From a virus (lineage: Duplodnaviria; Caudoviricetes), in the IMG/VR virus record IMGVR_UViG_3300021979_000004, positions 96,001 through 160,000 of that record: a stretch of 64,000 bases of DNA; one strand, written 5' to 3'. A program made the translations under genes and the position numbers. Below the pieces are notes generated by a model, which was given only the letters and a program-made list of their open reading frames with translations, was not told the DNA's origin and did no database searches. Positions 15,311-63,237 of the stretch are shown here, in pieces; within the stretch, counting starts at the first letter, position 1; every line of letters starts with the position of its first letter.

Positions 15311-15571
15311 ATGAGTATTGAAAATATTTTGATTATGCTTGGCTATTCGCTAGGGAAGTGCTTTAAGGTATCGAGTCCTATCCTTGGACTACTAGTGTTT
15401 TGTTCCATGGTTGATCCGACACTGAGTGTTCAAACTGCCCTCAGTATCTATTCCTTGGTGTATGTTGTTATTCTATCAGGAGACGTGTTTGGGTATGCTT
15501 ACTCAGCAGCTATGTACTGGAAGTTTCATGGTAAGAATCTTCGTAAACTAATACTGGATGAAGACTGTTAA
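15311..15571 (+). CDS. small membrane protein
   Basis: 86-aa hydrophobic ORF. Confidence 0.55.
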   Translation: MSIENILIMLGYSLGKCFKVSSPILGLLVFCSMVDPTLSVQTALSIYSLVYVVILSGDVFGYAYSAAMYWKFHGKNLRKLILDEDC

Positions 15572-15960
15572 TCTTCATCCTCTTCTTCGCCCCAATAAGG
15601 GTTAATGTCTTTTCCAACGTAGGCTTTGATCTTAGTTTTGCCGATAAGGTTTAGTGCATTTGCTCTATGAGTACCATCAATTATAGAGCCATCATCTGGA
15701 TCGTATACAATAGGATGATAGCCTTCTTTTTCAATACGCTTGGAAAGTTCTTCAACAAAGTCTTCGTCTACTTCCCATTCGTCTAGATTAAGGTCATCGA
15801 TATCCATTACTGTTTTTTCGTAGGTATCAAACTTGTTTATGCGATGTACAAGATCACCTTCGTCAAAATCTTCAGGGCGTCCATGAATATCTTGGACCAT
15901 ATCTAGCACTGTTCGAGAATCTACTACCGTATTCTCGTTGAGGATGTGTTCGATTAACAT
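15568..15960 (-). CDS. ParB/Sulfiredoxin-fold protein, late
   Basis: PIVYDPDDGSIIDGTHRANAL (DGxHR) motif; TATAAATA upstream; MLIEHILNE leader. Confidence 0.75.
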   Translation of the reverse strand: MLIEHILNENTVVDSRTVLDMVQDIHGRPEDFDEGDLVHRINKFDTYEKTVMDIDDLNLDEWEVDEDFVEELSKRIEKEGYHPIVYDPDDGSIIDGTHRANALNLIGKTKIKAYVGKDINPYWGEEEDED

Positions 15961-15980
15961 AATATACTCCTATTTTAGTA

Positions 15981-15988
15981 TATTTATA
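15981..15988 (-). promoter_or_regulatory. T4-type late promoter
   Basis: Exact TATAAATA about 20 nt upstream of the ATG at 15960. Confidence 0.7.
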
Positions 15989-16240
15989 TCAATCCCATTC
16001 TGTCCAATCTTCTAAGTCTTCAGGAGTTGCGTTCGCTAATAGTTCACTACCCTTTTTAGCTATCTCTGCCAGCCTTTCCTTAGACGGTCTGAAGCTTCCT
16101 TTAAAGGTGACAACGCCAGACACCTTACGATAGACTCTCAGGTATTCTTCTCTCGTGCAGTTATCCAGACAATGAGAACGTACATGTTCCCTTGTTTTAG
16201 ATAATGGTATTCGTTGATAACAAATATGACAGAAAATCAT
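15989..16240 (-). CDS. small Cys/His (Zn-finger-like) protein
   Basis: CHIC..H...H motif. Confidence 0.6.
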   Translation of the reverse strand: MIFCHICYQRIPLSKTREHVRSHCLDNCTREEYLRVYRKVSGVVTFKGSFRPSKERLAEIAKKGSELLANATPEDLEDWTEWD

Positions 16241-16248
16241 AATAAAGA

Positions 16249-16602
16249 TTAATCCATTTCTAAAACAGTTACTGATGGTGTTTGTGGCAGGGGAGTAAAA
16301 TGTATTCCCTTTTCTTTAACGTAGGTTTGAAAACTATTAATATAATTTCCTTTTAAATCAAATGTTTGTACTTTGACTAGATAAACATCATCTTGTATAG
16401 CTTCGATTACTATATCTGACTCTATATTTACATCATCAAACATGTAAAGGTGATTACGGTTTACGGTTAATATAATGTAGTGAACTGGGTCTTGTCCTCG
16501 TAACCATACGTCATTTATTACTGATGGACTTCGTTCCTGAATGTATTTTCCATTTGGGTCTTTTTCAATTTTCCACGACAGAGTTCGTATATTCATTTTC
16601 AT
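16249..16602 (-). CDS. hypothetical protein
   Basis: 117-aa ORF with RBS AAGGA. Confidence 0.65.
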   Translation of the reverse strand: MKMNIRTLSWKIEKDPNGKYIQERSPSVINDVWLRGQDPVHYIILTVNRNHLYMFDDVNIESDIVIEAIQDDVYLVKVQTFDLKGNYINSFQTYVKEKGIHFTPLPQTPSVTVLEMD

Positions 16603-16685
16603 ATCCTTTCTATTTGCAATCGTGAAACATTATTGTATCATACCGTTGAATAATGTAAATGATAAATTGATTTTTCTAAGTCAAT

Positions 16686-22087: not shown

Positions 22088-22109
22088 GAGGGCCTAAGCC
22101 CTCTTTTTT
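22086..22109. terminator. intrinsic terminator between convergent genes
   Basis: AAGAGGGC-CTAA-GCCCTCTT plus T run. Confidence 0.75.
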
Positions 22110-22431
22110 ATAGATTCAGCAAACGTCTAGCATATGACTCAGCTTCGTTCTTATTGGCCTTAAAGTAGAAATAGCTCTGCTCACGACCAGTATCCAACCT
22201 CGTTTTATACTCAGGTTTTAAAATACCATCTTTAACAAGATTGTTCAGTGCTTGAACTACTTGTCTGTGTGGTGCATTGAAGCGCTTCACATATTGTTCT
22301 GGTGTGACGAAATATTTCCCTTTTGATGGGGAGAGAATTTCTACCAGAACTTGCTCAGTCACCTGTGCTTTTAGTTCTTTGAAATTTTTCTTGCTCAGTA
22401 CTGTACCTGCAAATGATTGTACGTGTTGCAT
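22108..22431 (-). CDS. possible winged-helix DNA-binding protein
   Basis: Start MQHVQ (RBS GGAGGG); APHRQVVQALNNLVKDGILK resembles a wHTH recognition helix and wing. Confidence 0.5.
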   Translation of the reverse strand: MQHVQSFAGTVLSKKNFKELKAQVTEQVLVEILSPSKGKYFVTPEQYVKRFNAPHRQVVQALNNLVKDGILKPEYKTRLDTGREQSYFYFKANKNEAESYARRLLNL

Positions 22432-22461
22432 ATGAATTCCCTCCATAACTTAAAAATATGA

Positions 22462-22491
22462 ATTATATCAATGGTTGTTTCTCTCTGTCAA
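22462..22491 (-). promoter_or_regulatory. sigma70-like promoter with extended -10
   Basis: TTGACA-18nt-TATAAT with TGn. Confidence 0.65.
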
Positions 22492-22551
22492 GTGAATTCG
22501 AAGAATTCATAGTGAGGTGTTTACGCCTCACTAATAACAATAGAGAAATTA

Positions 22552-22559
22552 TATTTATA
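22552..22559 (-). promoter_or_regulatory. T4-type late promoter
   Basis: Exact TATAAATA in intergenic DNA. Confidence 0.5.
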
Positions 22560-22684
22560 GGAGTTATATGTATAGATAACTTTTATTATCTGTATTCCAT
22601 TTCATTCCATACAGATATGAAATATCATTCTGATATTTCTATTACATAACTCTTACTTTTTCTTTATAAAGAAATATAAGAACT

Positions 22685-22711
22685 AGGTTAGAGTTTTGAG
22701 GTTAGAGTTTT
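22685..22711. repeat. 13-bp direct repeat x2
   Basis: AGGTTAGAGTTTT at 22685-22697 and 22699-22711. Confidence 0.8.
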
Positions 22712-22776
22712 CGAGTACCTAGACAAATTCAATATCTATGGTAGATTTGATTAATTACAAAAACAGGAGATAAGTA

Positions 22777-23502
22777 ATGACAGTAGAACGTAAAGAACTG
22801 CAACCGCTAATTGAGAACGTATATGATATGGATGCAGCAGGACAGGTTTATTTCATTAATGAGATATTTGGTAATAAGTTTGGTGGAAACACTCAAGATA
22901 AAGTTATTGCACAAACCGAAAACATCTATGATGAAGCAGAAGAGTTTGTAAAAGATGGACTTGAGCATAACAATCGTAAGGAAGTTATTGATGCTATCGG
23001 TGATCTTCTAACCTTTGGGTATGGTATTGGGTATCTACTTGGCCTAGATAGTAAGGTTGTATATAACTATGATTACTATGAGAATCGTCCTGATATTACA
23101 AATGAACAGATGATTAGACTTGTTGTGTATCAAACAGATGAATTGATTGATGCATTAAATTTAAAAGATGGTAAGGATTATTTGAAAGAGTATGAAAAGC
23201 TCATGGGATTGATCAAGACACTTTGTACTCTCAATGATGTTGGTGAAGATCGTTTGATGACAAGAATCACTGTTAGTAATCTAACTAAAATCTGTTCTAC
23301 CTTTGATGAGTGTCAGGCTACCATAGATAAGTATACAGATATTGGCGTAGATGTTTATTCTAAATACTTTAAAGTGCAAGGTAACTGGATTCACGTTGTA
23401 TATTCTTCAAAAGAACAGGTAGTTAAAGGCAAAATGTATCGCCCACATAAGTTCTTGAAATGCATTTATTTCAAAGAGCCAGTTCTTGATGACCTTGTAT
23501 AA
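22777..23502 (+). CDS. MazG-like / all-alpha NTP pyrophosphohydrolase
   Basis: DEAEEF...EVIDAIGDL acidic motif; second degenerate helical repeat. Confidence 0.7.
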   Translation: MTVERKELQPLIENVYDMDAAGQVYFINEIFGNKFGGNTQDKVIAQTENIYDEAEEFVKDGLEHNNRKEVIDAIGDLLTFGYGIGYLLGLDSKVVYNYDYYENRPDITNEQMIRLVVYQTDELIDALNLKDGKDYLKEYEKLMGLIKTLCTLNDVGEDRLMTRITVSNLTKICSTFDECQATIDKYTDIGVDVYSKYFKVQGNWIHVVYSSKEQVVKGKMYRPHKFLKCIYFKEPVLDDLV

Positions 23503-23505
23503 ATA
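23498..23505 (+). promoter_or_regulatory. T4-type late promoter
   Basis: TATAAATA upstream of 23527. Confidence 0.7.
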
Positions 23506-23526: not shown

Positions 23527-24225
23527 ATGGCAGTGAAAATATATAATGTAATCAATAAAGGTGTACGTATTAGTGATGGTGTATTTACTGGACCGTCTCT
23601 GATAACAGACGCAGGGCTGTACATTGAAAGTGCTGGTGGATACTATGCAGGTGGAAATATTTTAGTAGATGGTACTGAATATAAGGTCATTGTCGCACCT
23701 AAAGAACTAGGTGAAGCAGTGAGTACTGAATGGAAAGTAAATAATACGACATCTGGCACTTTTAGTAAATATGACGGTAAGTCAAATATGCAAACAATTA
23801 TAAACTCTGGTGGGATTACCTCTCATCCAGCGTTTAATTTTTGTAACAACTTGAATATAAATGGATTTAGTGATTGGCACTTACCGTCGCCGGATGAATT
23901 AGAGCTATGTTATAGGTTTCTTAAGCCGAACACAATTGATAATTACGTAAGTTCAAGGCCGTTGCATAATGAAACTAATGGTTTTAATCCAAACTCTAAT
24001 CCATTGGGTGGTGGATATACCGTTTCGTCCCCAACACTAACAGTCTCTTCAGAATTCCAATCTGGTAACTCACAGGCGTTCATTGGGGGCGCATATTGGA
24101 CTTCATACGAGCCAGATAGTGTTTCGACTGCTGCATATTATCAGCGTTTTAGTGATGGTCTACAAAATACAACTCTGAAAGATGGAAATTATTATGTGAG
24201 AGCCGTTAGGTGGGTAGAAGTATAA
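23527..24225 (+). CDS. DUF1566/Lcl C-type-lectin-fold virion protein
   Basis: GFSDWHLPSPDEL, YWTS and YVRAVR motifs. Confidence 0.8.
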   Translation: MAVKIYNVINKGVRISDGVFTGPSLITDAGLYIESAGGYYAGGNILVDGTEYKVIVAPKELGEAVSTEWKVNNTTSGTFSKYDGKSNMQTIINSGGITSHPAFNFCNNLNINGFSDWHLPSPDELELCYRFLKPNTIDNYVSSRPLHNETNGFNPNSNPLGGGYTVSSPTLTVSSEFQSGNSQAFIGGAYWTSYEPDSVSTAAYYQRFSDGLQNTTLKDGNYYVRAVRWVEV

Positions 24226-24226
24226 T

Positions 24227-24607
24227 ATGATTTTATTTGAATACGATTATGACATGTGTAACTTACCACTCAATGAGAGTATCCAACAGTTAAATGAAGA
24301 AGATTTGGAACGCTTATTCGTAAGTAGTTCCAATGTACATAGTTTCTGGTTTAAAGATAGTGGTAATGGTATTGGTACTTTAACAATAGAATTCAACAAC
24401 GGTGCTGAGTATGAGTATTATCAAGTTCCCTATACTTTAGTCAAATACTTTACAGTAGCACCATCATTTGGTCGATTTGTATGGAAAAACATTCGTGGAC
24501 GTTTCCCATACAAACGTGTAGATGTAAAAGGATATCCATTGATCAAACCACGAGTTAAAGTCAGTACCTCTGGAAAAGAGAAACGCTGGCGTAAGAAGAA
24601 AAAATAA
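24227..24607 (+). CDS. KTSC-domain protein
   Basis: SSNVHSF..TLTIEFNNGAEYEYYQVP..F..APSFGRFVWKNIRGRFPY. Confidence 0.85.
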   Translation: MILFEYDYDMCNLPLNESIQQLNEEDLERLFVSSSNVHSFWFKDSGNGIGTLTIEFNNGAEYEYYQVPYTLVKYFTVAPSFGRFVWKNIRGRFPYKRVDVKGYPLIKPRVKVSTSGKEKRWRKKKK

Positions 24608-24630: not shown

Positions 24631-24678
24631 CATTTCTAGAAATCCATAAATATTCTTAAAGATAAAAAGGATATTATA

Positions 24679-26418
24679 ATGACTAAAAAGATTTTCGAAG
24701 GCGTTAAGTTTGGGGATAAAGAAAAAGCTCTGATACTTAAGAATGCCAAAGATTTTAATGTTGGTATAGAATATGAAATGCATTACCGACCTCCCATTGA
24801 TTTTCATGAGTTAGCTTCAGAAGGGTATGAATTTCTTGTTGCAAAAATGGAAGACAATGACCTTCGTGAAGAAATGGAAGATATATATAACTCGGCATTA
24901 GATAGTGATAGTTACCTTACCAATATCACCGCTGACTTTCCAACCATTTTAAAGATGATGTATGCATTGTATGATTATGAGCAGTTTGTTAAGAAAAATG
25001 TAAGACCTGATATTGATGTTGATGCAGCATTCGGTGGTGAGCAAGATGAACTTATTGATGACGAGAAAACACCTGAACTATTTCTAAGGGCTTTGAAGAA
25101 AACCTTTGAAGATCATGAAATAAAATGGGAAGATGCCAAAGAAGTACTTACCAACCTTAAATCTAATTCTCCACAGTACGAAGACATTATACTATTAATG
25201 GATGCGTACTTTGATGGTGATCTGTTTGACGACGATGGCTCTATGGGTATGTATTCGGATTACCTTATGATATTAACCAACGTTGTTACTTCTGATGATG
25301 AGAAGACGATTGCTGGTATGGTCGATAGTATGGCGAACACTGAAATAGGTCCGCCTACCCCTGAAGAAGAGCTTGACTTTACAATGGGAAAGGTTAGTTC
25401 AGATACAATAAAGTACGAGGATTATAATTCATATCGCTTAAGTAAAGAGCCAATCGAAGTCATTGAAGAAATAGTATTAGATTATTTCCGAGAACATGGT
25501 AGTGATTACGTACATGAAATGACCGGTGACGATGAGGGTATACCTACGGAAGGTAACCTTGCTGACAATGGTGTAGATACTACTGTAATAAATGCTATAT
25601 CTACTGATCATGGTGGGCAAGCTGAAGTTATTACAGAACAGATGGATGTCATTGAAGCGTTTGAAAATATATCACAGATGTTTTATTTTATCGAAAACCA
25701 TGCAGAAACTAGTAACATATCTGGTATGCACGTTTCGATTTCAACAAACAAGTATGATCTTGATGATTTCAACATGATGAAATATGTAGCAATGCTTGAT
25801 ATGGATCACATTTTAGAAATGTTTCCAGAAAGACAATATGTATATGACTTAAGTGGGATAATCAATGGTGCTATACAAGATGAAATGGCAGGAACCATTG
25901 AAGAAGAATATATAAACAGTAAAGGTAGAATGTCCGCTGCGAACTTAGTTAAAAGTCTTGCACGTGCAGCAAAATATATGATCGACACTGAGAAATACCA
26001 ATCTATAAAGTTTGGTGACTATCGTATTATGGATGGGCGTATTGAATTAAGGTTCTTTGGTGGCGAAGATTACCATACAATGGAAAACGAAATTAAACAC
26101 CATATTCTTAGAGCATTGTATCTATTAAATTTTGCATACACTGATGAATACAATAATGTTTATTATAAAAAGATTGCAAAGATGGTCAATAGTAATATAA
26201 AAGATCAGTATGGTGTATCTATAAGTACGCTGGTTTCAGCAATTGAGAAAGTAAACAAGATGTTCCCTGAGAAGATAACAGGAATGTATGAGCGATATGT
26301 TGATAGCCTTGGTGGTTATCAATCTGATGATTTGAAAATGTTTGACAGATTTATGAAAAAGACCTTCGGCAACGAATGGTATAGGAAGTTAGATTTTTTA
26401 AGGGGTTTATATGACTAA
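24679..26418 (+). CDS. putative amidoligase (glutamine-synthetase-like COOH-NH2 ligase), copy 1
   Basis: VGIEYE, EVIT, GMHVSIS, KYQSIKF, GRIELRFFGG; CATAAATA at 24645-24652. Confidence 0.8.
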   Translation: MTKKIFEGVKFGDKEKALILKNAKDFNVGIEYEMHYRPPIDFHELASEGYEFLVAKMEDNDLREEMEDIYNSALDSDSYLTNITADFPTILKMMYALYDYEQFVKKNVRPDIDVDAAFGGEQDELIDDEKTPELFLRALKKTFEDHEIKWEDAKEVLTNLKSNSPQYEDIILLMDAYFDGDLFDDDGSMGMYSDYLMILTNVVTSDDEKTIAGMVDSMANTEIGPPTPEEELDFTMGKVSSDTIKYEDYNSYRLSKEPIEVIEEIVLDYFREHGSDYVHEMTGDDEGIPTEGNLADNGVDTTVINAISTDHGGQAEVITEQMDVIEAFENISQMFYFIENHAETSNISGMHVSISTNKYDLDDFNMMKYVAMLDMDHILEMFPERQYVYDLSGIINGAIQDEMAGTIEEEYINSKGRMSAANLVKSLARAAKYMIDTEKYQSIKFGDYRIMDGRIELRFFGGEDYHTMENEIKHHILRALYLLNFAYTDEYNNVYYKKIAKMVNSNIKDQYGVSISTLVSAIEKVNKMFPEKITGMYERYVDSLGGYQSDDLKMFDRFMKKTFGNEWYRKLDFLRGLYD

Positions 26419-28186
26419 GAAGTTATGGGAAGGTATTAAGTTTGGTGATCGTGAGAAGAAAGTAGTTCTCCAAAACTCTGAGGATTACTATGTTGGTATC
26501 GAGTATGAGTTTAATATCAACGAAGAAGAACCTAAATCAGTACGCGACCTTGTTGATTTTGAGCAAGACCCAGATGATATCATTCGTGACATGGTTAGTG
26601 TCAGTGAAGATAATGACGTAGACTTAGATTCGGACTATGCATCATATATGATAAACTATTTGGAATCCACGTTTAATATTGAAGATTATGTACCAAGTGT
26701 CTGCATGGACTTGTTTTATGTTATAAGACACCTTACAGAAAAACTAACCGATAGTGAACCAGAAGATACAGAAACAGAAGATATGTTTCCTGATGAGAAA
26801 AAGGACGCATACTTTAAAATCTATCGTGACCTTTTCTTTGAACAATCCAAACAGGGTGAAATAGATTTAAATAATATCTATGAGTTGTTTAACTCTGAAG
26901 CTATAGGCACACATGCGTTCTATGCGATATGTAAAGTACTAGACGTGTATTACGATGGTAATTTATTTGAAGGTCAGACAACCCTTATGGAAGACTTCTA
27001 TGAATTCTATAGTTTGAACTTAGAATTAAACCCTGAATTCTTCGATATTAGAAATTCTGAAGATAATATAAGAGAACTAGAAGATATAGACAGTACCAAT
27101 AAAACAATAATTCAAATAGTTGACCATCTTAGAAAGTCTTCCTTAAAAAACTTTTTCACAAAAGATGATGAGTTATCATATACAGTCGATGAGAATGGAT
27201 TTAGTTTAAGTGATTTTGATATTAGTGATTATATAAAGTACGTAGAAGAGTACGGTAATATCCCTGACGTAACTAATTTCTTGGTTGATTCTTTTACTGA
27301 CTATGTTGATGGTGGGTATTTTGAAAATGAAACCCCAGACTTAGATGAAGATGAGTTACATTCTCAGGTTGCGTTCATAGATCGTATAGTAGATGAACAT
27401 GACGATATGAAAGAAGTTATAACTGAAAAGATGACTGTTATGGATGCAATCGAAAACATTCAGGATATGTTTAGGTTTATGAGTAACAACACCCACGTGG
27501 AGCATTATGCAGGAATGCATATTTCCATATCAACAACTAAGTATGATCTTGATGATTTTAATCTAGCTAAGTTTATCACAATAATGGATATCGACCATAT
27601 CCGTGATTATTTCCCAGACCGTGGACATGTGTCTGACCTCCAAGAAATAGTGATGAATATTATTAATGAAAATATTCATGGTGTTATATTACGTCATGTC
27701 GATAGAAAAGAGAAGTCTATGGTGGGAGTTATTAAGGACATTGAATATGGTATTGACAAAGGAACGTCTGAACATAAGTATCAAACTATAAACTTCGGGG
27801 ATTATAAATTTCATGATGGTCGTATAGAGCTAAGATTCTTTGGTGGTGAAAATTACCATGAACGATATGAAGACATACTGACCCATTTGCTACGCGCACT
27901 GTATCTACTTAACTTCGCATATACTGATGAGCATAACAAGGATTACTATAAGAAGATAACCAAAATGGTTAATGCTGTAGTAAAAGAAAAGTATAACTTT
28001 TCGTTTTCATATATGTATAGCTCTTTGATGAAAATATCCGAACAGATTGATATTTTGGAATTCTTAAATGATCTTGGTTTAGGTGATCATGATCCTAAAC
28101 ACTTCGATTTGTTTAAAAGGTACTTTAAAAACAATACGGTTGATATATTAGATAAGCTTTATGTAGCAGCACGATATAGTATGTAA
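26411..28186 (+). CDS. putative amidoligase, copy 2 (tandem paralog)
   Basis: VGIEYE, EVIT, GMHISIS, KYQTINF, GRIELRFFGG. Confidence 0.8.
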   Translation: MTKKLWEGIKFGDREKKVVLQNSEDYYVGIEYEFNINEEEPKSVRDLVDFEQDPDDIIRDMVSVSEDNDVDLDSDYASYMINYLESTFNIEDYVPSVCMDLFYVIRHLTEKLTDSEPEDTETEDMFPDEKKDAYFKIYRDLFFEQSKQGEIDLNNIYELFNSEAIGTHAFYAICKVLDVYYDGNLFEGQTTLMEDFYEFYSLNLELNPEFFDIRNSEDNIRELEDIDSTNKTIIQIVDHLRKSSLKNFFTKDDELSYTVDENGFSLSDFDISDYIKYVEEYGNIPDVTNFLVDSFTDYVDGGYFENETPDLDEDELHSQVAFIDRIVDEHDDMKEVITEKMTVMDAIENIQDMFRFMSNNTHVEHYAGMHISISTTKYDLDDFNLAKFITIMDIDHIRDYFPDRGHVSDLQEIVMNIINENIHGVILRHVDRKEKSMVGVIKDIEYGIDKGTSEHKYQTINFGDYKFHDGRIELRFFGGENYHERYEDILTHLLRALYLLNFAYTDEHNKDYYKKITKMVNAVVKEKYNFSFSYMYSSLMKISEQIDILEFLNDLGLGDHDPKHFDLFKRYFKNNTVDILDKLYVAARYSM

Positions 28187-29190: not shown

Positions 29191-29667
29191 ATGCCCAAAA
29201 TAAGAGAAGACAATAAAGGGAAATATTTTGTTTCCGAAGGTCGAATTGTTAGACCAGTAGAAAATACAAGCTTTGAATCGGATACATCAGTCGATGCGTC
29301 ACAATGTAAAGGCACACCTATCTATGGTGTAGGCAAAGATGATAGTTGTGGACGTGGCGAGTATCTTGAAGCATGGTTTGATACCGGTCTTGAAAGTAGT
29401 GTACATTCATCCTTAGTTGAGGGGAAAATTAACGAAGATGATCCTTTACTAAAGGTAGAAGATGTTCAACGTATGATTTTAGAAGATTATCCAATATCTT
29501 ATGTTGACAACAAGGTATCTTTTGTTACCATCAAGAATAATCATAAAGAAGTCGTTGATAATGGCAATTCCAGTATTGCGAAAGCTCTTAAGGAATCCTT
29601 ATCAAACGAAATGGGAGATATCCCACCATTGAATATTTTTGATGATAACGGTGAAGATAATGTTTAA
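29191..29667 (+). CDS. hypothetical protein
   Basis: 158-aa ORF. Confidence 0.7.
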   Translation: MPKIREDNKGKYFVSEGRIVRPVENTSFESDTSVDASQCKGTPIYGVGKDDSCGRGEYLEAWFDTGLESSVHSSLVEGKINEDDPLLKVEDVQRMILEDYPISYVDNKVSFVTIKNNHKEVVDNGNSSIAKALKESLSNEMGDIPPLNIFDDNGEDNV

Positions 29668-29929
29668 GACTTTGAATGATAAAGACAGATATAGTGAAGT
29701 ACCTGAATTTCTGAAAGACGCAATCCGTAATCTTCTATTCGAAGGCCAATCGGTTGTATATGACTTTGATGCACATTACTCACCCGCAAGGGCACAGAGA
29801 AAAGCGCATATTATTAGTGATGAAAAGCCGGATGGCACAGTAACTATTAAGCGATACATCGTTAATTACGTAACTAACTGTGGTGTAGTCGAAGTATTCA
29901 ATATTACAGAAGATAAAAATACTTGGTGA
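29660..29929 (+). CDS. hypothetical protein
   Basis: Likely start MFKTL at 29660. Confidence 0.6.
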   Translation: MFKTLNDKDRYSEVPEFLKDAIRNLLFEGQSVVYDFDAHYSPARAQRKAHIISDEKPDGTVTIKRYIVNYVTNCGVVEVFNITEDKNTW

Positions 29930-29935
29930 ATTATA

Positions 29936-31291
29936 ATGAAAAATGTTTATGACGCTATTCAAGCAATGGCTTCAACCACTAAAAGAAAAGAAAAAGAATC
30001 AATCCTTGAGGATATTAAAGCATCCTCTCTTAATGACACATTTAAACGTGTAGCCTTTCTTGCACTAGACCCCAGACATAACTTCAACATCGTTGAGTAT
30101 GATCAACAGGAATTCCTTGCAGAAAGCTCTAGTGAATCATGTACGTTGGACGAAGCTCTAGATATTCTTGAAGACAAGATTCTCAATGAAGGTGTTCGTG
30201 GGAATGCTGCAAAAGATTTACTATTTGATTTATCAGGTAAGCTATTACCAGAAGATCAGTACGTTCTAAAATGTATTATTGATAGAACCCTACGTTGTGG
30301 TGTTAGTGATAAGACCGTGAATAAAATTTGGGGTGACTTAATCTATATTCATCCATATCGTCGCTGCTCGTCATTCTCTGAGAAAAATATAAAGAGTATC
30401 AATCTACCTGCCATTTCTCAATTAAAAGAAGATGGTATGTATGTTGATATTGTAGTGCACGATGGCAAAGTGGAATACCGTTCTCGTAGTGGTGGTTACT
30501 TCGCTTGGCATACAGAAGAGAATGATACCCTTCTTAAGTCAAACTGCGAAGGTAATGTTCTTATGGGCGAAGCATTGGTTAAGGACGAAGACGGTAATAT
30601 CATGGAGCGTCAAGCTGGTAATGGTTACTTGAACGGCGATGAGGTTGATCCTAAGCGAATTATCTTTAGTCTATGGGATATCATACCCTATGATGAATGG
30701 CGCAATGGTAAGTCTACACAGCCCTATTCAAAGACATATGATAGACTGCTTGATATAGTACCAAAGCTGAACTATGCGTTTCGTATTGTTGATACACGCA
30801 TTGTTGAAACTGTTGATGATATCATTCAGCATTTTAAATCAAACATTGCTCAAGGTCTTGAAGGTAGTGTTATTAAGAACCTAGATAGTGTTTGGAAAGA
30901 TGGAACCAGTAACGACCAAGTAAAAGTTAAGCTAATCTTCGAGGTGGAACTTGAAGTAGTCTCAGTTTATGAAGGTGAGAAAGGCCGTAAGTATGAAGGT
31001 AAGCTAGGTGGTGTTACTGCGAAAACATCTGATGGACTACTTATGTCCGATGTTGGTGGTGGTTGGAAAGACGCAGAGCGTGAAAAATACTTCAATAATC
31101 CTGAACTGATTGAAGGTAAAATTATTACAGTTAAGGCATGTGATATTTCTAAGAGTGATGACAATGAATACTTTGCTTTAAGTAATCCACGTTTCATAGA
31201 AATACGTAGTGATAAGTCTGAATCTGATTCATTTGAACGTGTCAAAGAACAAAAGCAGGCATCAGTAGAAAGCTTGAATATTATTACATAA
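29936..31291 (+). CDS. ATP-dependent DNA ligase (T4 gp30-like)
   Basis: Motif I QLKEDG; GEAL; EGSVIKN; KVKL; PRFIEIRSDK. Confidence 0.95.
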   Translation: MKNVYDAIQAMASTTKRKEKESILEDIKASSLNDTFKRVAFLALDPRHNFNIVEYDQQEFLAESSSESCTLDEALDILEDKILNEGVRGNAAKDLLFDLSGKLLPEDQYVLKCIIDRTLRCGVSDKTVNKIWGDLIYIHPYRRCSSFSEKNIKSINLPAISQLKEDGMYVDIVVHDGKVEYRSRSGGYFAWHTEENDTLLKSNCEGNVLMGEALVKDEDGNIMERQAGNGYLNGDEVDPKRIIFSLWDIIPYDEWRNGKSTQPYSKTYDRLLDIVPKLNYAFRIVDTRIVETVDDIIQHFKSNIAQGLEGSVIKNLDSVWKDGTSNDQVKVKLIFEVELEVVSVYEGEKGRKYEGKLGGVTAKTSDGLLMSDVGGGWKDAEREKYFNNPELIEGKIITVKACDISKSDDNEYFALSNPRFIEIRSDKSESDSFERVKEQKQASVESLNIIT

Positions 31292-31300: not shown

Positions 31301-31633
31301 ATGGATTGGATTACTATTGTCGGTATTATAGCTGCTTCATTTACTATTATTTCAACTGTATATCTAGTCGTTTCTAAGGTTCGCCGCTTTATGAAAGCGG
31401 TGGATACCCGACTTGTTGCACTAGAAGATAGTTTTAAAATAAGAGAAGAGCTTATATTAACCGAAGAAATTGTTGTTCTCAATGAAGATAATAATAGAAC
31501 ATACACATTAAGAGAAGGTACGGTAGTTATAGTTTACAATATCGTAGATGACATTGTAGAGTTTGTAACTAAAGATCGTCTTATAACCGCAAAAGCAAAT
31601 ATTAAAAATTTTAGACAAGAGGAAATAAAATGA
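31301..31633 (+). CDS. single-pass membrane protein
   Basis: N-terminal TM helix. Confidence 0.7.
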   Translation: MDWITIVGIIAASFTIISTVYLVVSKVRRFMKAVDTRLVALEDSFKIREELILTEEIVVLNEDNNRTYTLREGTVVIVYNIVDDIVEFVTKDRLITAKANIKNFRQEEIK

Positions 31634-32175: not shown

Positions 32176-32177
32176 TA

Positions 32178-34798: not shown

Positions 34799-34815
34799 CT
34801 AATTCTCCTAAAATA

Positions 34816-36473: not shown

Positions 36474-36487
36474 TTATGACCCCTTAA

Positions 36488-37777: not shown

Positions 37778-38458
37778 CTAAATAAATATATCATCCCAAA
37801 TGAAGTCGTTGATGAAATCTTTAATTCTTTCGTCTTCTCCGTTGATTATGTAAAATGAATTACATTTCAACATGATTTCATTACCATTTCGGAATGCTTC
37901 TTTGAAATTGTTTTTTTCGTAATCACCATTTTCTAATATAGCTAATACTATCTCTTTATATTTAGAAGGACTTTCTGCTTTTACATCTTCTAAAAATTTC
38001 TTTACACCTTTGTATGATTCGAGGTCATATCCTTCTGGGATACCAAACTTCTTTTTATATATTTCAGCTTTTTGCATCCATCCCATTTCTAGGAATAAGT
38101 CTGTGTAATTATTACTATTGATTATGCTAAACTTACCTACTGGAAATACGTAATGGATTGAACCATACTTACTTGCCAATCCCCTATTGGTAGTGACGAA
38201 TACAGTATTTGTTCTTGCTGCTACATTAAACTTCTCTTTGAACCACTCGTTAGAAATTTGATGGTCTTCTGCATCCATACTCATTGGCTTAGGACGTTGT
38301 TCTACTTTTATTTTTGTCAACGTGTCATATGGTTGTGCTGATCCTCTTAATAGCGGCCTTTTAATACCATTACGTGCAAGCTCTTTGAGTAATGTCAAAT
38401 AAGGTTTGCATTTATTTAAGAGAATTTCTTCAATCAGGATATCGTCGTCATCGAACAT
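37778..38458 (-). CDS. possible ADP-ribosyltransferase-like protein
   Basis: LLRG...VFVTT..LASKYG..HYVFP pattern; paralog of 5136..5930. Confidence 0.55.
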   Translation of the reverse strand: MFDDDDILIEEILLNKCKPYLTLLKELARNGIKRPLLRGSAQPYDTLTKIKVEQRPKPMSMDAEDHQISNEWFKEKFNVAARTNTVFVTTNRGLASKYGSIHYVFPVGKFSIINSNNYTDLFLEMGWMQKAEIYKKKFGIPEGYDLESYKGVKKFLEDVKAESPSKYKEIVLAILENGDYEKNNFKEAFRNGNEIMLKCNSFYIINGEDERIKDFINDFIWDDIFI

Positions 38459-38496: not shown

Positions 38497-39906
38497 ATGC
38501 GTCTATCAAAATTATTACTAGAAACCCAAGTATCAGATGTCTTTTCAGACACATTTGAAACTTTTATTTCTGACTATAATGTTATTTATTCGAGAAACTT
38601 GTTTGTGGTTTTCAGCAACAAAGAAGTTTCTGACCCTTCAGATTTGATGGTTGATTCAGGTACAAACCTACCAATAGCGTTCCCTCTACAATCCGTAGTT
38701 GATAATCCTTCTCAATATGTGGATTATGCAGAGTACAAATACTTATACGTTATTCAGATTGAAGGTAGTGTGTTCCATTTAAAGAATATTAAACTATCTC
38801 ATGTAAAAGAAATTTCTAAGAGAATAGGTCTTTCTAAAGAAGATTTTGATTTTATGATTTCTAAGTTTAGCGACAACTACAAAACATCTAACCCAAGCAT
38901 AGAGAGTTACATGTTTAGTAAATTATTGTTTAACGATGTCGAAATAAAAGATGAAGAAATTAAGTTAACAAAAGTTAGTAACAATACTGTTGTTAGACGC
39001 TTAAAGAAGCTAGGTATATCTGCACTTGTACAAGATCAGGACTCGGGAAGTAATTTGATTTCAACAACACATAAGAACGTTGCTGTAGTAAGTGGTAAGT
39101 CTTTTAATGTGAAGTCTGAATATCTATTGCAAAAAGAACCGAAAGAAGAAATTCAAAAACGAATCAATGACGATTCATACCTATACTTCAGAGACAACAA
39201 ATATATGCGAGGTGTGGCTGAGCAGATTGCTAAAGGGTTAGGAACCAAGCTAAACTCCGATCCTGCATACACACTATTCTTGGATTATTATTTCTGGACT
39301 GTCGATGGTATTGAAATAGTAATCACAGTAGCTTTCGGTAAAGAAGAAGAGTCTGATGATCACGACAATGTTTATTATGTGATAGAAGCTGACACACCTT
39401 ATGGTGTTTTGGTACACAGGGTCCATACTGACGACAGTCTTGATAGTATTGAGAAAGAGATTGCGAACGTATACAGTTCACATGTTGTTCCTAACGACGA
39501 TTGGGAACCTACTAACAGAGACATATTCCTTGATACTGAGCGAAGAGAATATAAACTGTTTGATGTACACTACGATGACGTTGTTAGTGTTGTCGATGAG
39601 TTCTACCCGATTATTCAAAGTTTAGGCAGACAGTATTCAATAGCATTGCCTGCACTAACATACTTTGGTAATTTTGATAAAATCTTTATTCATCAGTTTA
39701 TAGAGTTCATTGCTTCAAACCCTACGCCTCCTGTACAGTTGATGAAAGAACTTGAAGAAAAGGATTATGATTTCAACCAACTGTTCTTCATGCCTATGCC
39801 AAAGAAGATGTCTGTGGATATTTTGAAGAATATTGCTATGATCTATTCAATTGTTAAGGAAAGACGACCCAACTCCAACGGCTGGCACTTATTTAAAGAC
39901 AAGTAA
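38497..39906 (+). CDS. late acidic protein, candidate head-internal protein
   Basis: 469 aa; MRLSKLLLE leader. Confidence 0.75.
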   Translation: MRLSKLLLETQVSDVFSDTFETFISDYNVIYSRNLFVVFSNKEVSDPSDLMVDSGTNLPIAFPLQSVVDNPSQYVDYAEYKYLYVIQIEGSVFHLKNIKLSHVKEISKRIGLSKEDFDFMISKFSDNYKTSNPSIESYMFSKLLFNDVEIKDEEIKLTKVSNNTVVRRLKKLGISALVQDQDSGSNLISTTHKNVAVVSGKSFNVKSEYLLQKEPKEEIQKRINDDSYLYFRDNKYMRGVAEQIAKGLGTKLNSDPAYTLFLDYYFWTVDGIEIVITVAFGKEEESDDHDNVYYVIEADTPYGVLVHRVHTDDSLDSIEKEIANVYSSHVVPNDDWEPTNRDIFLDTERREYKLFDVHYDDVVSVVDEFYPIIQSLGRQYSIALPALTYFGNFDKIFIHQFIEFIASNPTPPVQLMKELEEKDYDFNQLFFMPMPKKMSVDILKNIAMIYSIVKERRPNSNGWHLFKDK

Positions 39907-40577: not shown

Positions 40578-41369
40578 TCAGTCCTTCTTTCTTTTCTGTC
40601 CTTCCCCTCTACTTAAGAGGTTCCATTTTATATTTGATTTATCGAATGTACCTAACTTAGTTTTAAATTTTTCAACACCATCGTCGTCTAGCATCTGTTT
40701 GTATCTAGCTTTCCTATTTGATAGCTCATCATTAGTAAACTTACCAATGTTATCAAAGTCGATACCTTTCATTATAGCAACTTTATTATCAGTATAATCA
40801 CCGGTAGTGAAGTAAGTACATATTTGTCCTACGATTTCAGTAAAAAATACTGGCTTTAGTCGTTTAGGTAAAAGCTTGGTGTGTGATAGATATGTGTTCA
40901 TTTCGCCACGCACGGTAAAACTATTTTTACTAAAGCGATAGTCTTTATAATTAGGAGTCTTTTCATAATTATTTTTCGCTAACATCTTAGCAAACTCTTT
41001 TTCATTTGGAAGATGGTGTCCAACAAAGTCATGCACTGCACGAAGAATGTCATTTTCAACACCTGTTAAACCGGGATGGTCATCATCTGATGGAGTTTTG
41101 AAAATCTTCATCCTATTATTGACAATAATATCATACATCATTTCTTTTTGATTTTTGTATGGATCGCGTGAAGTATATTGGATATCAACCTTTTTCATTA
41201 TTTTACCAAGCATCTTTTCGTTATGTCTGGCTACTTCTTTCCAAAGGCTTGCAACATTTTCATCATATGTTGGCAACTCTTGGTATTCTTCGGCAACGAC
41301 AATGCAATATGCAACTAAATCATTACCGTTTGTTACTATTGATTCGTTAAGTACGTCATTTATTCTCAT
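40578..41369 (-). CDS. late protein with HDxxGH putative metal site
   Basis: MRINDVLNE leader; ILRAVHDFVGHH..FTVRGE. Confidence 0.7.
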   Translation of the reverse strand: MRINDVLNESIVTNGNDLVAYCIVVAEEYQELPTYDENVASLWKEVARHNEKMLGKIMKKVDIQYTSRDPYKNQKEMMYDIIVNNRMKIFKTPSDDDHPGLTGVENDILRAVHDFVGHHLPNEKEFAKMLAKNNYEKTPNYKDYRFSKNSFTVRGEMNTYLSHTKLLPKRLKPVFFTEIVGQICTYFTTGDYTDNKVAIMKGIDFDNIGKFTNDELSNRKARYKQMLDDDGVEKFKTKLGTFDKSNIKWNLLSRGEGQKRKKD

Positions 41370-45808: not shown

Positions 45809-47164
45809 TTATTGCTTTTCACTTCTTACTTCAGTTAGGTTGATAGTATTGAATGTGAAAGATGTATTGTTCATCGTAGTAGAAAACGCAGCTTCTGATA
45901 ATTGAGTTGGATCAGAAAACGTATGTGTTTCGTTAGCTGAACTTAGTGACACGCTACCCCAAGATAATGCACTATGGTTAGTAGCTGATCCAGTAACGTT
46001 AGTAAAATCACTGGATATTTTAATAGTTGCTGCATCAAAAGTTCCTGATCCAGTACTACTTACAGGGGCACTTCCGCCTATTAAATAAGAACCGTCTGAA
46101 GCCTTTGTTATATGATATAAAAGCACACCACTGTCTAACTCTACTGAAGAAGTTATATTTAAGCTCCCATCAAGCTTTAACACAAAACCAGTGCTTACAT
46201 ATACTTGTGGGTCTTTTTGATAACCTCCTAAGACCACCAATCCATTGTCATAATAGACACTTTGTATTGATAATGGCAACACACCATTATATAATCTTTT
46301 TTGAGATAGTGTGTTTAAGTCTTTATCTAACTCAAAAATTAATCCTTCGTCATGATCTGTATAATAACCGCGTCCAACAATAGCAACACCATTAGGAGTT
46401 GTACAAATGTCAGCGAATTGTGATCTTATCATACTCGCGGTAGAATTTAAATACTTCTTACTAACTAAGTTTAGTGTATTATCAAACTTAGCGATAAATC
46501 CATACCCAGATGTGTTTTCAGAGTCGTCAGTACCAATAGCAATATAGCCATCGGATACTTGAACTACTTTAAAAAGCTCATTCGCATTTGGACCGGATAA
46601 GAGGTTTGTATTAAGAACGTTTAGGTTTTGATCAAACTTCATGATAAGGGCATCAAAACCATCAACGAATGCTGTACCAACCGCTACATAGCTGTTATTG
46701 TCGCCTTGGATAACATCATAAAATCTTTTACCACCACTTCCACTTGTTACCTTTTGTGTTATAATATTAAGATTACCATCACTATCGCATATAAATGCTT
46801 CGCTTGAGTCAGTAGCAGTATAAACTTGACCCACAGCTACAAACTCATTATTGTAACTTGGAATAACAGAATCAAATGTTGAAATCTGGCCGGTGTCGGT
46901 ACTTAGATGTGTTTGTTGGGTAATATTTAACGCACTATCATACTTAACCATTAATGGCATTTTTGCCGGACTGTTGGTAGTATATTCATACCCAACAGAG
47001 AAAATACTTCCTCCTGAGCTTTCGTAGACACTCGCTATTTGATCATTACTAGTTGTTCCACCACCCAAGGTAGATATGACCCATGATTGAAAATCAGCAA
47101 CAGAAACCGCTTTAGGGATACGTATACCATTAAAATCGGCTGTGTATATTTTTATTCCACCCAT
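45809..47164 (-). CDS. beta-propeller-like repeat protein, likely virion/tail-associated
   Basis: About 50-aa repeats (VAVG..KFDQNLN, IAIG..KFDNTLN, VLGG..KLDGSLN); GATAAATA at 47204-47211. Confidence 0.65.
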   Translation of the reverse strand: MGGIKIYTADFNGIRIPKAVSVADFQSWVISTLGGGTTSNDQIASVYESSGGSIFSVGYEYTTNSPAKMPLMVKYDSALNITQQTHLSTDTGQISTFDSVIPSYNNEFVAVGQVYTATDSSEAFICDSDGNLNIITQKVTSGSGGKRFYDVIQGDNNSYVAVGTAFVDGFDALIMKFDQNLNVLNTNLLSGPNANELFKVVQVSDGYIAIGTDDSENTSGYGFIAKFDNTLNLVSKKYLNSTASMIRSQFADICTTPNGVAIVGRGYYTDHDEGLIFELDKDLNTLSQKRLYNGVLPLSIQSVYYDNGLVVLGGYQKDPQVYVSTGFVLKLDGSLNITSSVELDSGVLLYHITKASDGSYLIGGSAPVSSTGSGTFDAATIKISSDFTNVTGSATNHSALSWGSVSLSSANETHTFSDPTQLSEAAFSTTMNNTSFTFNTINLTEVRSEKQ

Positions 47165-54775: not shown

Positions 54776-54783
54776 TATAAATA
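54776..54783 (+). promoter_or_regulatory. T4-type late promoter
   Basis: TATAAATA upstream of 54806. Confidence 0.75.
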
Positions 54784-54805: not shown

Positions 54806-55573
54806 ATGAGACTAGAACAACTTTTCGAAGATATACATTCAGACCAAGGAAAATTATCAAGTGCTAAAAAGGCATTTGATGATCTTATGTTTGAAATTAA
54901 AGGACATGTAGAGCTACTTGGTCTTGATGAATTTGATACCTTCGAAAAGTCGTACCTTGAAATAATGTCTAAGCTTTATACGTACACCTTTAAGTTAAAG
55001 TACAAAGATGAACCCATAACCGTTCGTATCCTTCCACAAACCAACTTAGATCGTAATAGGCTTGGTGTGTTAAACACAACAAGTATTGATGATGGAAGTG
55101 GCGTAAAATATCAGTATCAAATTACTATCTTTGTAAATCCTCATGACGATTTTGATTTGATTAGTGCAACAGATTTTTACAGAACGTTTGCTAAGAGTTA
55201 CCAGAAAGTTTTTATTCATGAGTTTGTACATTTTATCGACGCGGTTGAAAGTGACAACCAAGATAATTATACGCAAACAAAAAGAAAGCTTAGACAGAAA
55301 GGCAAGTACATCAATACCCCACAGGAGTACAATGCATTTTACATTCAGATGATGAGTGAAATAGATGATGCATTCGAAGACTCTGCCGTTATGAATATAT
55401 TCAAACAAGACCCCTCATTTGATAAGTTTCTATCCCTCATAAACGTCGAAACACATGCAGGAGAAATGCTAAAGGATTTGGAAGGGAAGTATAAAAAGGC
55501 GTTTAAGAAGAGGTTATATCAATTATACAACCACTACTTGGAAAGAATAAAAGATCAAGCCAACGAAAAGTAA
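54806..55573 (+). CDS. zincin-like metallopeptidase, candidate head-internal protein
   Basis: MRLEQLFE leader; HEFVH...YINTPQE. Confidence 0.7.
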   Translation: MRLEQLFEDIHSDQGKLSSAKKAFDDLMFEIKGHVELLGLDEFDTFEKSYLEIMSKLYTYTFKLKYKDEPITVRILPQTNLDRNRLGVLNTTSIDDGSGVKYQYQITIFVNPHDDFDLISATDFYRTFAKSYQKVFIHEFVHFIDAVESDNQDNYTQTKRKLRQKGKYINTPQEYNAFYIQMMSEIDDAFEDSAVMNIFKQDPSFDKFLSLINVETHAGEMLKDLEGKYKKAFKKRLYQLYNHYLERIKDQANEK

Positions 55574-60634: not shown

Positions 60635-60671
60635 TCCACTTATGGTGTATAATCCTCTCAGGAGGTGAGAT

Positions 60672-60938
60672 ATGACCAGATACGTTGAATTGATGACATG
60701 TCCGAAGAAAGAAAGTCTATTGCTTGGTATTATAGGTGGACTAGGAAATACATTTGGAATAAAACCAGAACTTCTAAGATTAATCTTTAGCGTTATTTTA
60801 ATAGCTAACTTTGTACTCGGAACAAATGCATTTTGGTTTTTTATTATTTTTTACTTCGTAAGCTTCTTTTTAATTCCCCGATATGAAGAAATGTACGACA
60901 GAGCTATTAACCCTGACGCACAACCACCCGAGTTTTAA
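60672..60938 (+). CDS. PspC-domain membrane protein
   Basis: LLGIIGGLGNTFGIKPELLRLIF...YFVSFFLIP matches PspC GVCxGLAxYFxxxxxxVR...Y...W..lP. Confidence 0.7.
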   Translation: MTRYVELMTCPKKESLLLGIIGGLGNTFGIKPELLRLIFSVILIANFVLGTNAFWFFIIFYFVSFFLIPRYEEMYDRAINPDAQPPEF

Positions 60939-61771
60939 AAGTTTTCGCGATACTGTTGGATCATTACCTTGACAGCTTTCTTCCAAAGATCAGGGTTTTG
61001 ATCCTTTATACCACTTAGAACTGGTGAAGAGAAATCATCCAAGAATTCAGTAAACCTTTCAACTCTAGCTGAATCATCGCCAACAAAGTAGCGCATTAGT
61101 TGCATACGGTCATTGTTATTGATATGCAATGATTTGGAAAGGAATTTTATTTTATTTCTAAATGTATTGAACTCAGACTTAAGGGTAGGTAATAGCTCAA
61201 CTGCCGACGTTGCATATTTGATATATTCTTCCTGCGAACCATCTTTGGCTTTATGGTTTTGAACTTGTCTAGGATCGACTTTAGAAAATGCTTTGAATTG
61301 AACAAAATGCATAAGCTCATGCTCAACTGTGTTTTCAAATTCGTGTAGTGTGTAATTAATAAAGGATTCTTTTGGTTCTTGGTCTGCCATCATCATTTTG
61401 AGATTGTGAACGTTTAAAGTTAACATGTTTGTATCGTCATCATACCCACCGTAATAATGATCGTTTGTATCAACGATACGAATATTGATGAACTTATCTT
61501 CCTCAGCAATATTGTATTTAAATTGGTAAGAACCTAACCCAACTTTAGCATTCATGATAACGTTAGAGGTATGGGAAAATTTTAAACGCTTATGAAGTTC
61601 TGGGTATTTTGGATGAATATCGATGGTGCTTAGAAATACATGTCCACTATGCTCGTCATCATTCTTGACCGCCATGAAATCTATAACATACGCATAAACG
61701 AATTCCATGATATCACTGGTTAGTGTTTCTGGTAAACGAATCATGGATTCAAATAACTGTGTTAAACGCAT
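60935..61771 (-). CDS. zincin-like metallopeptidase, candidate head-internal protein
   Basis: MRLTQLFE leader; HELMH...YATSAVE; TATAAATA at 61806-61813. Confidence 0.7.
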   Translation of the reverse strand: MRLTQLFESMIRLPETLTSDIMEFVYAYVIDFMAVKNDDEHSGHVFLSTIDIHPKYPELHKRLKFSHTSNVIMNAKVGLGSYQFKYNIAEEDKFINIRIVDTNDHYYGGYDDDTNMLTLNVHNLKMMMADQEPKESFINYTLHEFENTVEHELMHFVQFKAFSKVDPRQVQNHKAKDGSQEEYIKYATSAVELLPTLKSEFNTFRNKIKFLSKSLHINNNDRMQLMRYFVGDDSARVERFTEFLDDFSSPVLSGIKDQNPDLWKKAVKVMIQQYRENF

Positions 61772-61889
61772 TGTAAAAATCCTTAAACATTAATATTATA
61801 TGTATTATTTATAGTTTGCAAAATTTTTTATTTGCATATAATATGATGTTGTGTTAGTATATACAGGTAAATTGAAATAAGGTGAAATT

Positions 61890-62300
61890 ATGAGCAACGA
61901 AAATCTTGTTTTTGTGTATGGAAGCTTGAAGCAAGGCTACCACAACCATGAAGTTATTTCTTTCGATTTTGATACCCACACTAAGAATAAAGGGTATGAT
62001 TATCTGGGTAAAGCAAAAACAGTTGATAAGTTCGCGATGTACGATATGGGATCATTCCCTGCTATCTCATTTGATGAAAACGGTAAGCAGGTTTCTGGTG
62101 AGCTATACGCGCTTGATGATGCGACATTTGATCTTCTGGATACTCTGGAAGGATACCCTGAGCATTATAACCGTAAGCTGGTTAAGCTTGATGTTGATGA
62201 AGACATCGAAGCATGGATTTATTTTTATGATCCTGAGAGTGTCGATGACACAATGGAAATTATCGACATTGAATCTGATGTGTATGAGTGGGAATATTAA
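61890..62300 (+). CDS. gamma-glutamylcyclotransferase (AIG2-like)
   Basis: VFVYGSLKQG, VSGELY, LDTLEGYP.HYNR, AWIYF. Confidence 0.9.
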   Translation: MSNENLVFVYGSLKQGYHNHEVISFDFDTHTKNKGYDYLGKAKTVDKFAMYDMGSFPAISFDENGKQVSGELYALDDATFDLLDTLEGYPEHYNRKLVKLDVDEDIEAWIYFYDPESVDDTMEIIDIESDVYEWEY

Positions 62301-62307
62301 TTCCCAC

Positions 62308-63237
62308 TTACTTTATTAGGTCTTCAACTCGCTTGTAGAAGTCTTTTACGACTTTCATATAAAGCTTTGGTGTATCTTGCTTTAGTGCTGAGAAATAATT
62401 CTTAGGTGGTATAGTTACAGGCATTGAATGATTGTCTCCCAATTTTATATCAAAACCCTTATCACTTAACGCCACAAACATACGGAAAAACTCTTTCTTC
62501 TGTTCTTTATCAAACTTCTGCCACCAGTCGTCACCTTCAACGAAACTTCTAAAGTCTTGCTCAAGGTTGGCTAGTTGTGGACGAATCTCTGCCGCAGAAG
62601 TAAAATAGTCATTGTGTACTTTATCTTCAGAGCGTTCACCTGATCCATAATTCTTTTTCGTAGCTGATTGGTCTTTGTGCAGCCCAATATCCTGAACCAA
62701 GTGCTGAAGCTCATGGTCGATAACACTCTTTAGTTTATTGAATTCAATTTTTACTTTCTTATCACTTTTACCACTTTCATCGAACCATGCACTTAATACT
62801 TCCCCTGAAAGGTCAAAAGCATTAATTAAAACATGGGGAACGCCATCTTTCATTCTGTAAGATGACACATCTTTTTCTCGCACCATTACTGAAACATCTA
62901 TCACAATAGCATCATTCTTAGTAAAGGAATCAACATTGTTTCTAACAAGCTGTGAGCTATGATAGTAAGGAACTTCTTCTGGACTCAAAACTGCAATCCC
63001 ATAATAGTCACGATTTGCTGACATACTACGCTTGAATCTTCCACTAAATTCCATTTCTAACGCATCAACATCGAGTCCCGTAGTATCTTCTATGACTTCT
63101 TTAAATTCGTTAACATCCTTCTCATTGCCACCACGTGCATGAAAATGATATACTGCAAAAACAGCCATACGGAGAACATCTTCTTTTAGTTCCTCGGGAA
63201 CTTTGATGGTTCTCTCAAATAGTTGATATAGTTTCAT
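62308..63237 (-). CDS. zincin-like metallopeptidase, candidate head-internal protein
   Basis: MKLYQLFE leader; HELQH...YFTSAAE; CATAAATA at 63259-63266. Confidence 0.7.
   Translation of the reverse strand: MKLYQLFERTIKVPEELKEDVLRMAVFAVYHFHARGGNEKDVNEFKEVIEDTTGLDVDALEMEFSGRFKRSMSANRDYYGIAVLSPEEVPYYHSSQLVRNNVDSFTKNDAIVIDVSVMVREKDVSSYRMKDGVPHVLINAFDLSGEVLSAWFDESGKSDKKVKIEFNKLKSVIDHELQHLVQDIGLHKDQSATKKNYGSGERSEDKVHNDYFTSAAEIRPQLANLEQDFRSFVEGDDWWQKFDKEQKKEFFRMFVALSDKGFDIKLGDNHSMPVTIPPKNYFSALKQDTPKLYMKVVKDFYKRVEDLIK

Follow-up and report, generated by a model that had tools for sequence, protein, structure and literature searches.

A shared N-terminal leader on late-type genes of an uncultured jumbo myovirus as a candidate prohead-targeting propeptide

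Six proteins encoded in the 64,000-nt window analysed here (the whole stretch of DNA, bases 96001-160000 of the 217,982-bp IMG/VR virus record IMGVR_UViG_3300021979_000004; ~36% GC) begin with variants of a single N-terminal leader of 8-9 residues. Its consensus is M-[KRL]-[LI]-x-x-[LIV]-[LF]-(x)-E, and it was found on 13 of the 372 open reading frames (ORFs) called across the whole 218-kb fragment. We infer, with a probability of roughly 0.6, that this leader is a prohead-targeting propeptide resembling the capsid-targeting sequence (CTS) of phage T4, which would direct its carriers to the prohead, be cleaved from them and leave them in the head. The original prediction had named ten N-termini in the window, all of which were recovered from the sequence at their positions, and six of these form the tight class described here.

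The leader and its carriers

Three of the six carriers in the window contain an HExxH motif: a 255-aa protein with HEFVH (54806..55573, plus strand; leader MRLEQLFE, 54806-54829), a 278-aa phrog_38692 protein with HELMH (60935..61771, minus strand; leader MRLTQLFE, 61748-61771) and its 309-aa paralogue with HELQH (62308..63237, minus strand; leader MKLYQLFE, 63214-63237). The remaining three are a 469-aa protein (38497..39906, plus strand; leader MRLSKLLLE, 38497-38523), a 263-aa phrog_3170 protein (40578..41369, minus strand; leader MRINDVLNE, 41343-41369) and a 130-aa ParB/Srx-like protein with a DGTHR motif (15568..15960, minus strand; leader MLIEHILNE, 15934-15960).

The regular expression M.[LIVM]..[LIVM][LFIVM].?E matched the 13 ORF starts against 0.94 expected from shuffling of residues 2-31, and the strict form, beginning M[RK][LI].., matched 10 ORFs against 0.07 expected. 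Internal Met positions served as a control, with 2/1613 fitting the expression and 1/1613 the strict pattern. Scoring with a position-specific scoring matrix (PSSM) left a clear gap, as all 13 carriers scored ≥11 and all remaining ORFs <9, and each of the 13 leaders closes with [LF]-E or [LIVF]-x-E, with the Glu as residue 8-9 (10). Junctions between polyprotein modules were not seen. Applied unchanged to the cultured relative Salicola phage SCTP-2 (440 kb), the expression gave 18 matches versus 1.2 expected, and on a 239-kb IMG/VR relative with the same GC content (G002) it gave 8 versus 0.77. The Leu, Ile, Glu, Arg and Lys codons of the conserved leader positions differ synonymously, and the constraint is therefore on the peptide and not on a nucleotide element.

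In pairs of orthologues the leader is better kept than the body of the protein. Homologues of the 54806 protein down to 50% identity have M1, R2, L3, L6, F7, E8 and D9 invariant, and its SCTP-2 orthologue begins with MKLEQLFED, retaining 8/9 leader residues versus 26% identity overall. The SCTP-2 orthologue of the 38497 protein has MRLTNLIE↓S (the arrow marks the end of the leader) at the aligned start. The longest ORF for this orthologue (SCTP-2 364793-366325, minus strand) places 44 residues ahead of this internal MRLTNLIE↓S, which aligns with Met1 of the 38497 protein, and judged from this alignment the internal Met is probably the true start.

Kinship among the carriers was assessed by BLAST after removal of the first 12 residues, followed by hhalign. 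BLAST grouped four carriers outside the window (g16858, g19836, g57542 and g58414) as family A (phrog_15932), joined 60935 with 62308, and joined g180997 with a neighbour that does not match the expression. With hhalign, g194300 was added to the family A superfamily, and the 54806 protein was linked to the 60935 family at the HExxH helix only, which leaves at least six groups of carriers without detectable relation by either method. The description of the carriers as otherwise unrelated thus stood for these groups, but not for the 60935/62308 pair, nor for the five or six carriers outside the window that are distant paralogues within one superfamily, a point that weighs against our reading. 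These kinships, together with the frequency of MK- starts in a 36% GC genome, would favour the view that there is no signal at all, and that the resemblance reflects paralogue descent combined with the Lys-rich, AT-rich starts usual for well-translated genes. We consider this very improbable, as a single count per unrelated group still gives a Poisson p = 4e-4, and since the near absence of the strict pattern from internal Met positions, the synonymous codon variation, the retention of the leader over the body in the 54806 pair and the existence of paralogues without a leader all argue against it.

The leaderless paralogues and the predicted structures place the leader outside the conserved domain. 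In AlphaFold (AF2) models the leader has low confidence by the predicted local distance difference test (pLDDT), with residues 1-8 of a family A member (mean pLDDT 75.5) below 50 and a confident fold straight after, and residues 1-9 of the 60935 protein (mean pLDDT 83.3) below 50 and the next block at 88-97. The conserved body of the zincin-like family starts with [SG]xIxx[VLI]P, and is preceded by 8 residues in 60935, 62308 and SCTP-2 243350, by 7 in SCTP-2 47818 (MKVILNE↓G), by 11 in XacN1 ORF117 (MKTSFRQFLAE↓S), and by none in SCTP-2 22088-22954, which begins with MSKIMKVP where the leader of 62308 stops (RTIKVP) and has stop codons upstream. Two leaderless paralogues of family A lie in the window on the minus strand, at 37778..38458 (phrog_11975/15932) and at 5136-5930. 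On the basis of these models and alignments, the leader is a separable module outside the predicted mature fold.

An ATAAATA box, the T4 late-promoter consensus, was found ≤70 nt upstream of 9/13 carriers (in the T4-type form NATAAATA) versus 39/359 other genes (odds ratio 18, Fisher p = 2e-6), and a further two carriers lie in operons behind such a box. The box is also found upstream of the sheath, tube and head-tail adaptor genes. Conversely, all three leaderless paralogues (SCTP-2 22088, and 37778-38458 and 5136-5930 in the window) also lack the late box, and in family A leader and box co-occur. In the window, TATAAATA or CATAAATA is located 27-41 nt upstream of the genes starting at 54806 (TATAAATA, 54776..54783, plus strand), 61771, 63237, 38497, 15960 and 24679; the other boxes are at 38469-38476, 24645-24652 and 23498-23505 on the plus strand and at 15981-15988, 61806-61813, 63259-63266 and 42591-42598 on the minus strand. 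The genes starting at 41369, 26411 and 24227 are located behind box-bearing genes, with 40578..41369 being the third operon gene behind the box at 42591-42598. This arrangement agrees with the original prediction, in which most of the listed genes had such an element just upstream and the rest followed a gene that did, and the gene starting at 6934 is preceded by a CTAAATA. The prediction had also set beforehand, as its refuting test, a comparison of motif frequency between late and early genes, and this did not refute it, with 9/48 boxed genes versus 4/324 others carrying the leader.

Lineage, head module and possible cargo

The window has tail genes for a sheath of 957 aa, a head-tail adaptor and head closure, as well as four tube paralogues in tandem. 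The sheath shares 54.5% identity with that of SCTP-2 and ~38% with those of Pseudomonas phage PA5oct and related phages; XacN1 and Rak2-like phages are more distant by the same comparison. Because of these identities the sequence assigns the source to an uncultured jumbo myovirus of the SCTP-2/PA5oct/XacN1 clade. A megablast search with 40 kb of the window gave zero matches in the phage collection. The four tube genes are consecutive (33584-37159, minus strand; phrog_4542 and related), an unusual fourfold paralogy, and three of the four proteins start with M[AS].[FY][AG]K[LY][DG].P.

The relatives of this phage have a T4-type head module. The head genes of PA5oct match PF07230 (gp20 portal), PF03420 (S77, gp21 protease) and PF07068 (gp23), the protease (SCTP-2 81165-81803) and the capsid protein are present in SCTP-2 (53-60% identity), and the S77 protease is present in SCTP-2, PA5oct, XacN1, G002 and 359 IMG/VR loci. 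SCTP-2 and G002 both have portal, protease and capsid genes of the gp20, S77/gp21 and gp23 types. N-termini similar to the leader occur within these modules. PA5oct gp333, a 73-aa protein adjoining the portal and detected in virions by electrospray ionization tandem mass spectrometry (ESI-MS/MS), starts with MKINDIITE↓G; in G002 the post-portal protein starts with MKLGDLTE↓S, the protease with MRPSQILTE↓H and the capsid protein with MATNLFE↓G; and in the IMG/VR set the post-portal core protein starts with MKLFEMFD or MKLIDMINE↓G and the capsid protein with MSKVLLE↓S. Capsid proteins of the clade also have L-x-E↓S/T/N at the alignment column of the maturation sites of T4 gp23 (LTE↓A) and gp24 (LRE↓S), which argues that the specificity of the protease is conserved. 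The SCTP-2 capsid protein has an L-K-E near residue 45.

These features suggest a route in which the leader would dock the carriers, late in infection, to the scaffolding core as the prohead assembles, after which a gp21-like S77 prohead protease would cleave behind the leader Glu, and the mature carriers (zincin-like, ParB/Srx-like and proteins without an assignable family) would remain in the head with the DNA. Besides the paralogy described above, several observations count against this. The regular expression was fitted post hoc on the source genome. Neither an S77 protease nor gp23 was found on the 218-kb fragment in searches with PF03420, PF07068 and PA5oct proteins as queries, and portal and scaffold queries from PA5oct had no match on it either, so that the whole head module is missing from the fragment. 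As the contig is incomplete (73% by CheckV), this represents missing data rather than evidence of absence, and an S77 protease is presumed for the source phage. The gp55-like late sigma factor of PA5oct and XacN1 was likewise not found on the fragment, which is why we infer the late timing of the carriers from their promoter boxes; a homologue is present in SCTP-2. In many core proteins of relatives the motif ends in Asp instead of Glu, a change that in the T4 CTS allows targeting and blocks processing (PMC9026906). PA5oct, alone among the relatives in having an annotated virion proteome, lacks homologues of the carriers, and has only two N-termini of the regular-expression type, on gp333, which was positive by mass spectrometry, and on gp213, which was not detected. 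Finally, the XacN1 virion enzymes chitinase ORF272, lipase ORF279 and M23 peptidase ORF322 have no leader. No cleavage analysis was found in the text of the PA5oct paper. For gp213 (NC_071039.1 179881-180267), an in-frame Met five codons past the annotated start gives MKIKEIILE, which fits the leader.

The head module of G002 is present and its sheath absent, and G000 (the 218-kb record) and G002 appear to represent complementary portions of similar genomes. The sheath protein, used to connect the IMG/VR contigs G001 and G002 with the source genome, gave no match to either. G002 as the missing part of the source genome was ruled out, since the two have only 8 proteins in common with a mean identity of 39%; it represents a relative with largely complementary content.

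Targeting to the prohead core may be real while the carriers are components of assembly or scaffold, degraded or retained, rather than delivered effectors. This is the alternative we rate highest, and we still regard it as unlikely. T4 gp24, gp21, gp22 and gp68 have such an N-terminus and are not injected (PMC5694885), the similar N-termini in relatives sit on core and capsid proteins, and an anti-host function has been demonstrated for none of the carriers. The carriers, however, are 130-469 aa in length, lie scattered outside the structural modules and vary among relatives, and three have an intact HExxH, a pattern which resembles the T4 internal proteins (IPs) and Alt rather than conserved scaffold genes. 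The tag could also be read by other machinery, such as a phage chaperone or protease, a tail or baseplate assembly site or a modifying enzyme, and the presence of ClpS, ClpA and ClpX in PA5oct-type phages would fit such a role. We find this quite improbable, given the gp21-type ending with hydrophobic-x-Glu and the presence of the motif on head-core proteins of relatives; in addition, no tail protein (sheath, tube or adaptor) has the motif, no radical S-adenosylmethionine (radical-SAM) gene was found in the 218-kb fragment, and the M-K and M-R N-termini are not ClpS N-degrons.

The nature of the proposed cargo can be predicted in part. Pfam gave no match for nine of ten proteins in the window, nor for 10 carriers outside it, and sequence searches of the carriers against the PDB had no match. 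In the 60935 family H151, E152, H155 and E192 are invariant. Foldseek searches with the zincin-like model returned mostly metallopeptidases in the top rows, at weak scores (E >0.7), with no Pfam match. The zincin assignment made earlier is thus backed by the invariant HExxH...E but not firmly by fold, and a zincin-like nature of the HExxH carriers is suggested by sequence yet unproven. The ParB-like label of the 15568 protein likewise has the DGTHR motif and a phrog_18056 match behind it, but this match is weak (E = 6e-5) and Pfam gave none. Proteins 38497 and 40578 had no assignable family in profile, PDB sequence or Atlas searches. Conserved columns in family A ([RH]G, R-NLIF[SA] and a C-terminal E-x-M) could be a triad like that of ADP-ribosyltransferases (ART-like, R/H-S-E), parallel to T4 Alt. 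Fold searches with family A gave no Foldseek match and VIA matches limited to a helical insert, and the only Atlas leads were DUF2441 and DUF3841, with scores <0.85.

Injection of the carriers into the host, or an anti-defence role, is speculation. Our broadest proposal, which we put forward tentatively and hold to be rather doubtful, is that the tag marks the packaged cargo of the whole, mostly uncultured jumbo-phage lineage, with 13-20 proteins per genome that turn over between relatives, including zincin-like proteases and possibly Alt-like enzymes, and that this cargo is delivered with the DNA for host takeover or counter-defence.

Other shared N-termini and neighbouring features

The four remaining N-termini of the original prediction are weaker cases. 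The tandem phrog_33777 paralogues at 24679-26418 and 26411-28186 (both plus strand) have the extensions MTKKIFE↓G and MTKKLWE↓G, and this extension reaches 13 and 16 aa in their homologues from SCTP-2, always with hydrophobic-x-Glu directly before the conserved G[VI][KR][FY]G, which makes a second class of propeptide plausible from the alignment. The proteins had probably been those called amidoligases, an assignment that went unconfirmed: they have a VGIEYE motif only, hidden Markov model (HMM) searches gave it no support, as no family in Pfam reached E ≤ 0.01, and a sequence search of the PDB gave no match. A small acidic protein at 6647..6934 (minus strand) starts with MKNMKEMIQLVE at 6934, with the CTAAATA at 6962-6968. 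Its start is a loose fit to the leader and falls outside the top PSSM class, and an SCTP-2 homologue is absent. The KTSC-domain protein at 24227..24607 (plus strand; PF13619, E = 2e-11) had been listed for its start MILFE, which was rejected as a leader, as the alignment with the SCTP-2 orthologue (MLLYEYDY, 59% identity) puts it within the conserved body.

A longer class of leader, of 11-12 residues with an L-F-E end, was seen as MMKITDLILFE↓SYKDA at G000 37615-38208 (minus strand), and as MKVKHITQYLFE↓SYKDAQ on four SCTP-2 paralogues (29525-30931, 31619-32416, 37422-38756 and 41732-42463). A different N-terminus is shared by further late genes, in the forms MAVKI[FY]N, MAAKIFN, MGIKFYG, MGVRFYG and MGGIKIYT, each preceded by an ATAAATA box. 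These genes are at 23527-24225 (plus strand) and 45809-47164 (minus strand) in the window and, outside it, at 73735, 79384, 85066, 186770 and 188398 in G000, and the shared start is probably a strand or docking module common to proteins of the fibre or baseplate type. An ORF at 31630-32175 (plus strand) starts with MTCIVGVEVG, with the N-terminal Thr signature of HslV/proteasome-like N-terminal nucleophile (Ntn) hydrolases.

Comparison with known systems

The T4 capsid-targeting sequence was reportedly described by Mullaney and Black in 1996, and the CTS principle is said to have been known since then. The principle and the packaging of diverse proteins by T4-like phages are in print (PMC9026906, PMC3012670), while no application of it to the SCTP-2/PA5oct/XacN1 lineage was found in the literature; what is new here is the lineage, together with its consensus and a repertoire of unusually large size. 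If our reading is true, the internal virion cargo of a mostly uncultured jumbo clade (359 IMG/VR loci with the protease) could be read from the genome, zincin-like and other uncharacterised families would be flagged as effectors of the first minutes of infection, and the leader would offer a short tag by which foreign proteins could be packaged into large capsids.

In T4, the CTS is found on IPI, IPII, IPIII and Alt, and together with the gp24 propeptide it is cut off by the prohead protease gp21 (PMC9026906, PMC3012670, PMC5694885), in which residues 4 and 7 matter to targeting, residues 8 and 10 to processing (PMC9026906). The T4 N-termini read MKTYQEFIAE (IPII/IPIII), MELITELFDE (Alt), MAKINELLRE↓S (gp24) and MNEPQLLIE (gp21). 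The 9-residue form of our leader has hydrophobic residues at 3, 6 and 7 and Glu at 9, which is the same spacing as 4, 7, 8 and 10 in the T4 CTS with one residue less; because of this one-residue offset the regular expression misses the T4 CTS, and a looser pattern finds it. The likeness to T4 that the original prediction had drawn is borne out in motif, spacing and the head module of relatives, but not by a head protease on the contig. As in T4, a short amphipathic peptide starting at Met1 and ending in hydrophobic-x-Glu is placed on otherwise unrelated late proteins, the relatives of the source phage have the S77 protease, gp23 and gp20 head module, and the cargo varies among relatives as do the IPs of T-even phages. 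In contrast to T4, the leader has 8-9 residues rather than 10 and its own consensus, M-K/R-I/L-x-x-L-L/F-(x)-E; there are at least 13 carriers (18 in SCTP-2), mostly of 250-470 aa, compared with ~4-7 in T4, where most are small and basic; and the phage, here known from sequence alone, belongs to the jumbo myoviruses of the SCTP-2/PA5oct lineage, with the protease gene not on the contig.

The phiKZ-like giant phages provide the second comparison, with propeptides on proteins such as SPN3US gp245 and phiKZ gp175 and a protease of the S80 family (PMC5694885, PMC10052503). These phages likewise load many proteins into the head, where a gp21-related protease cuts after the Glu of a short motif. Their propeptides, however, are mostly 80-130 residues long with the motif A/S/G-x-E and no common N-terminal tag of 8-9 residues, and they belong to a separate lineage with a virion RNA polymerase and a head module that is not T4-like.

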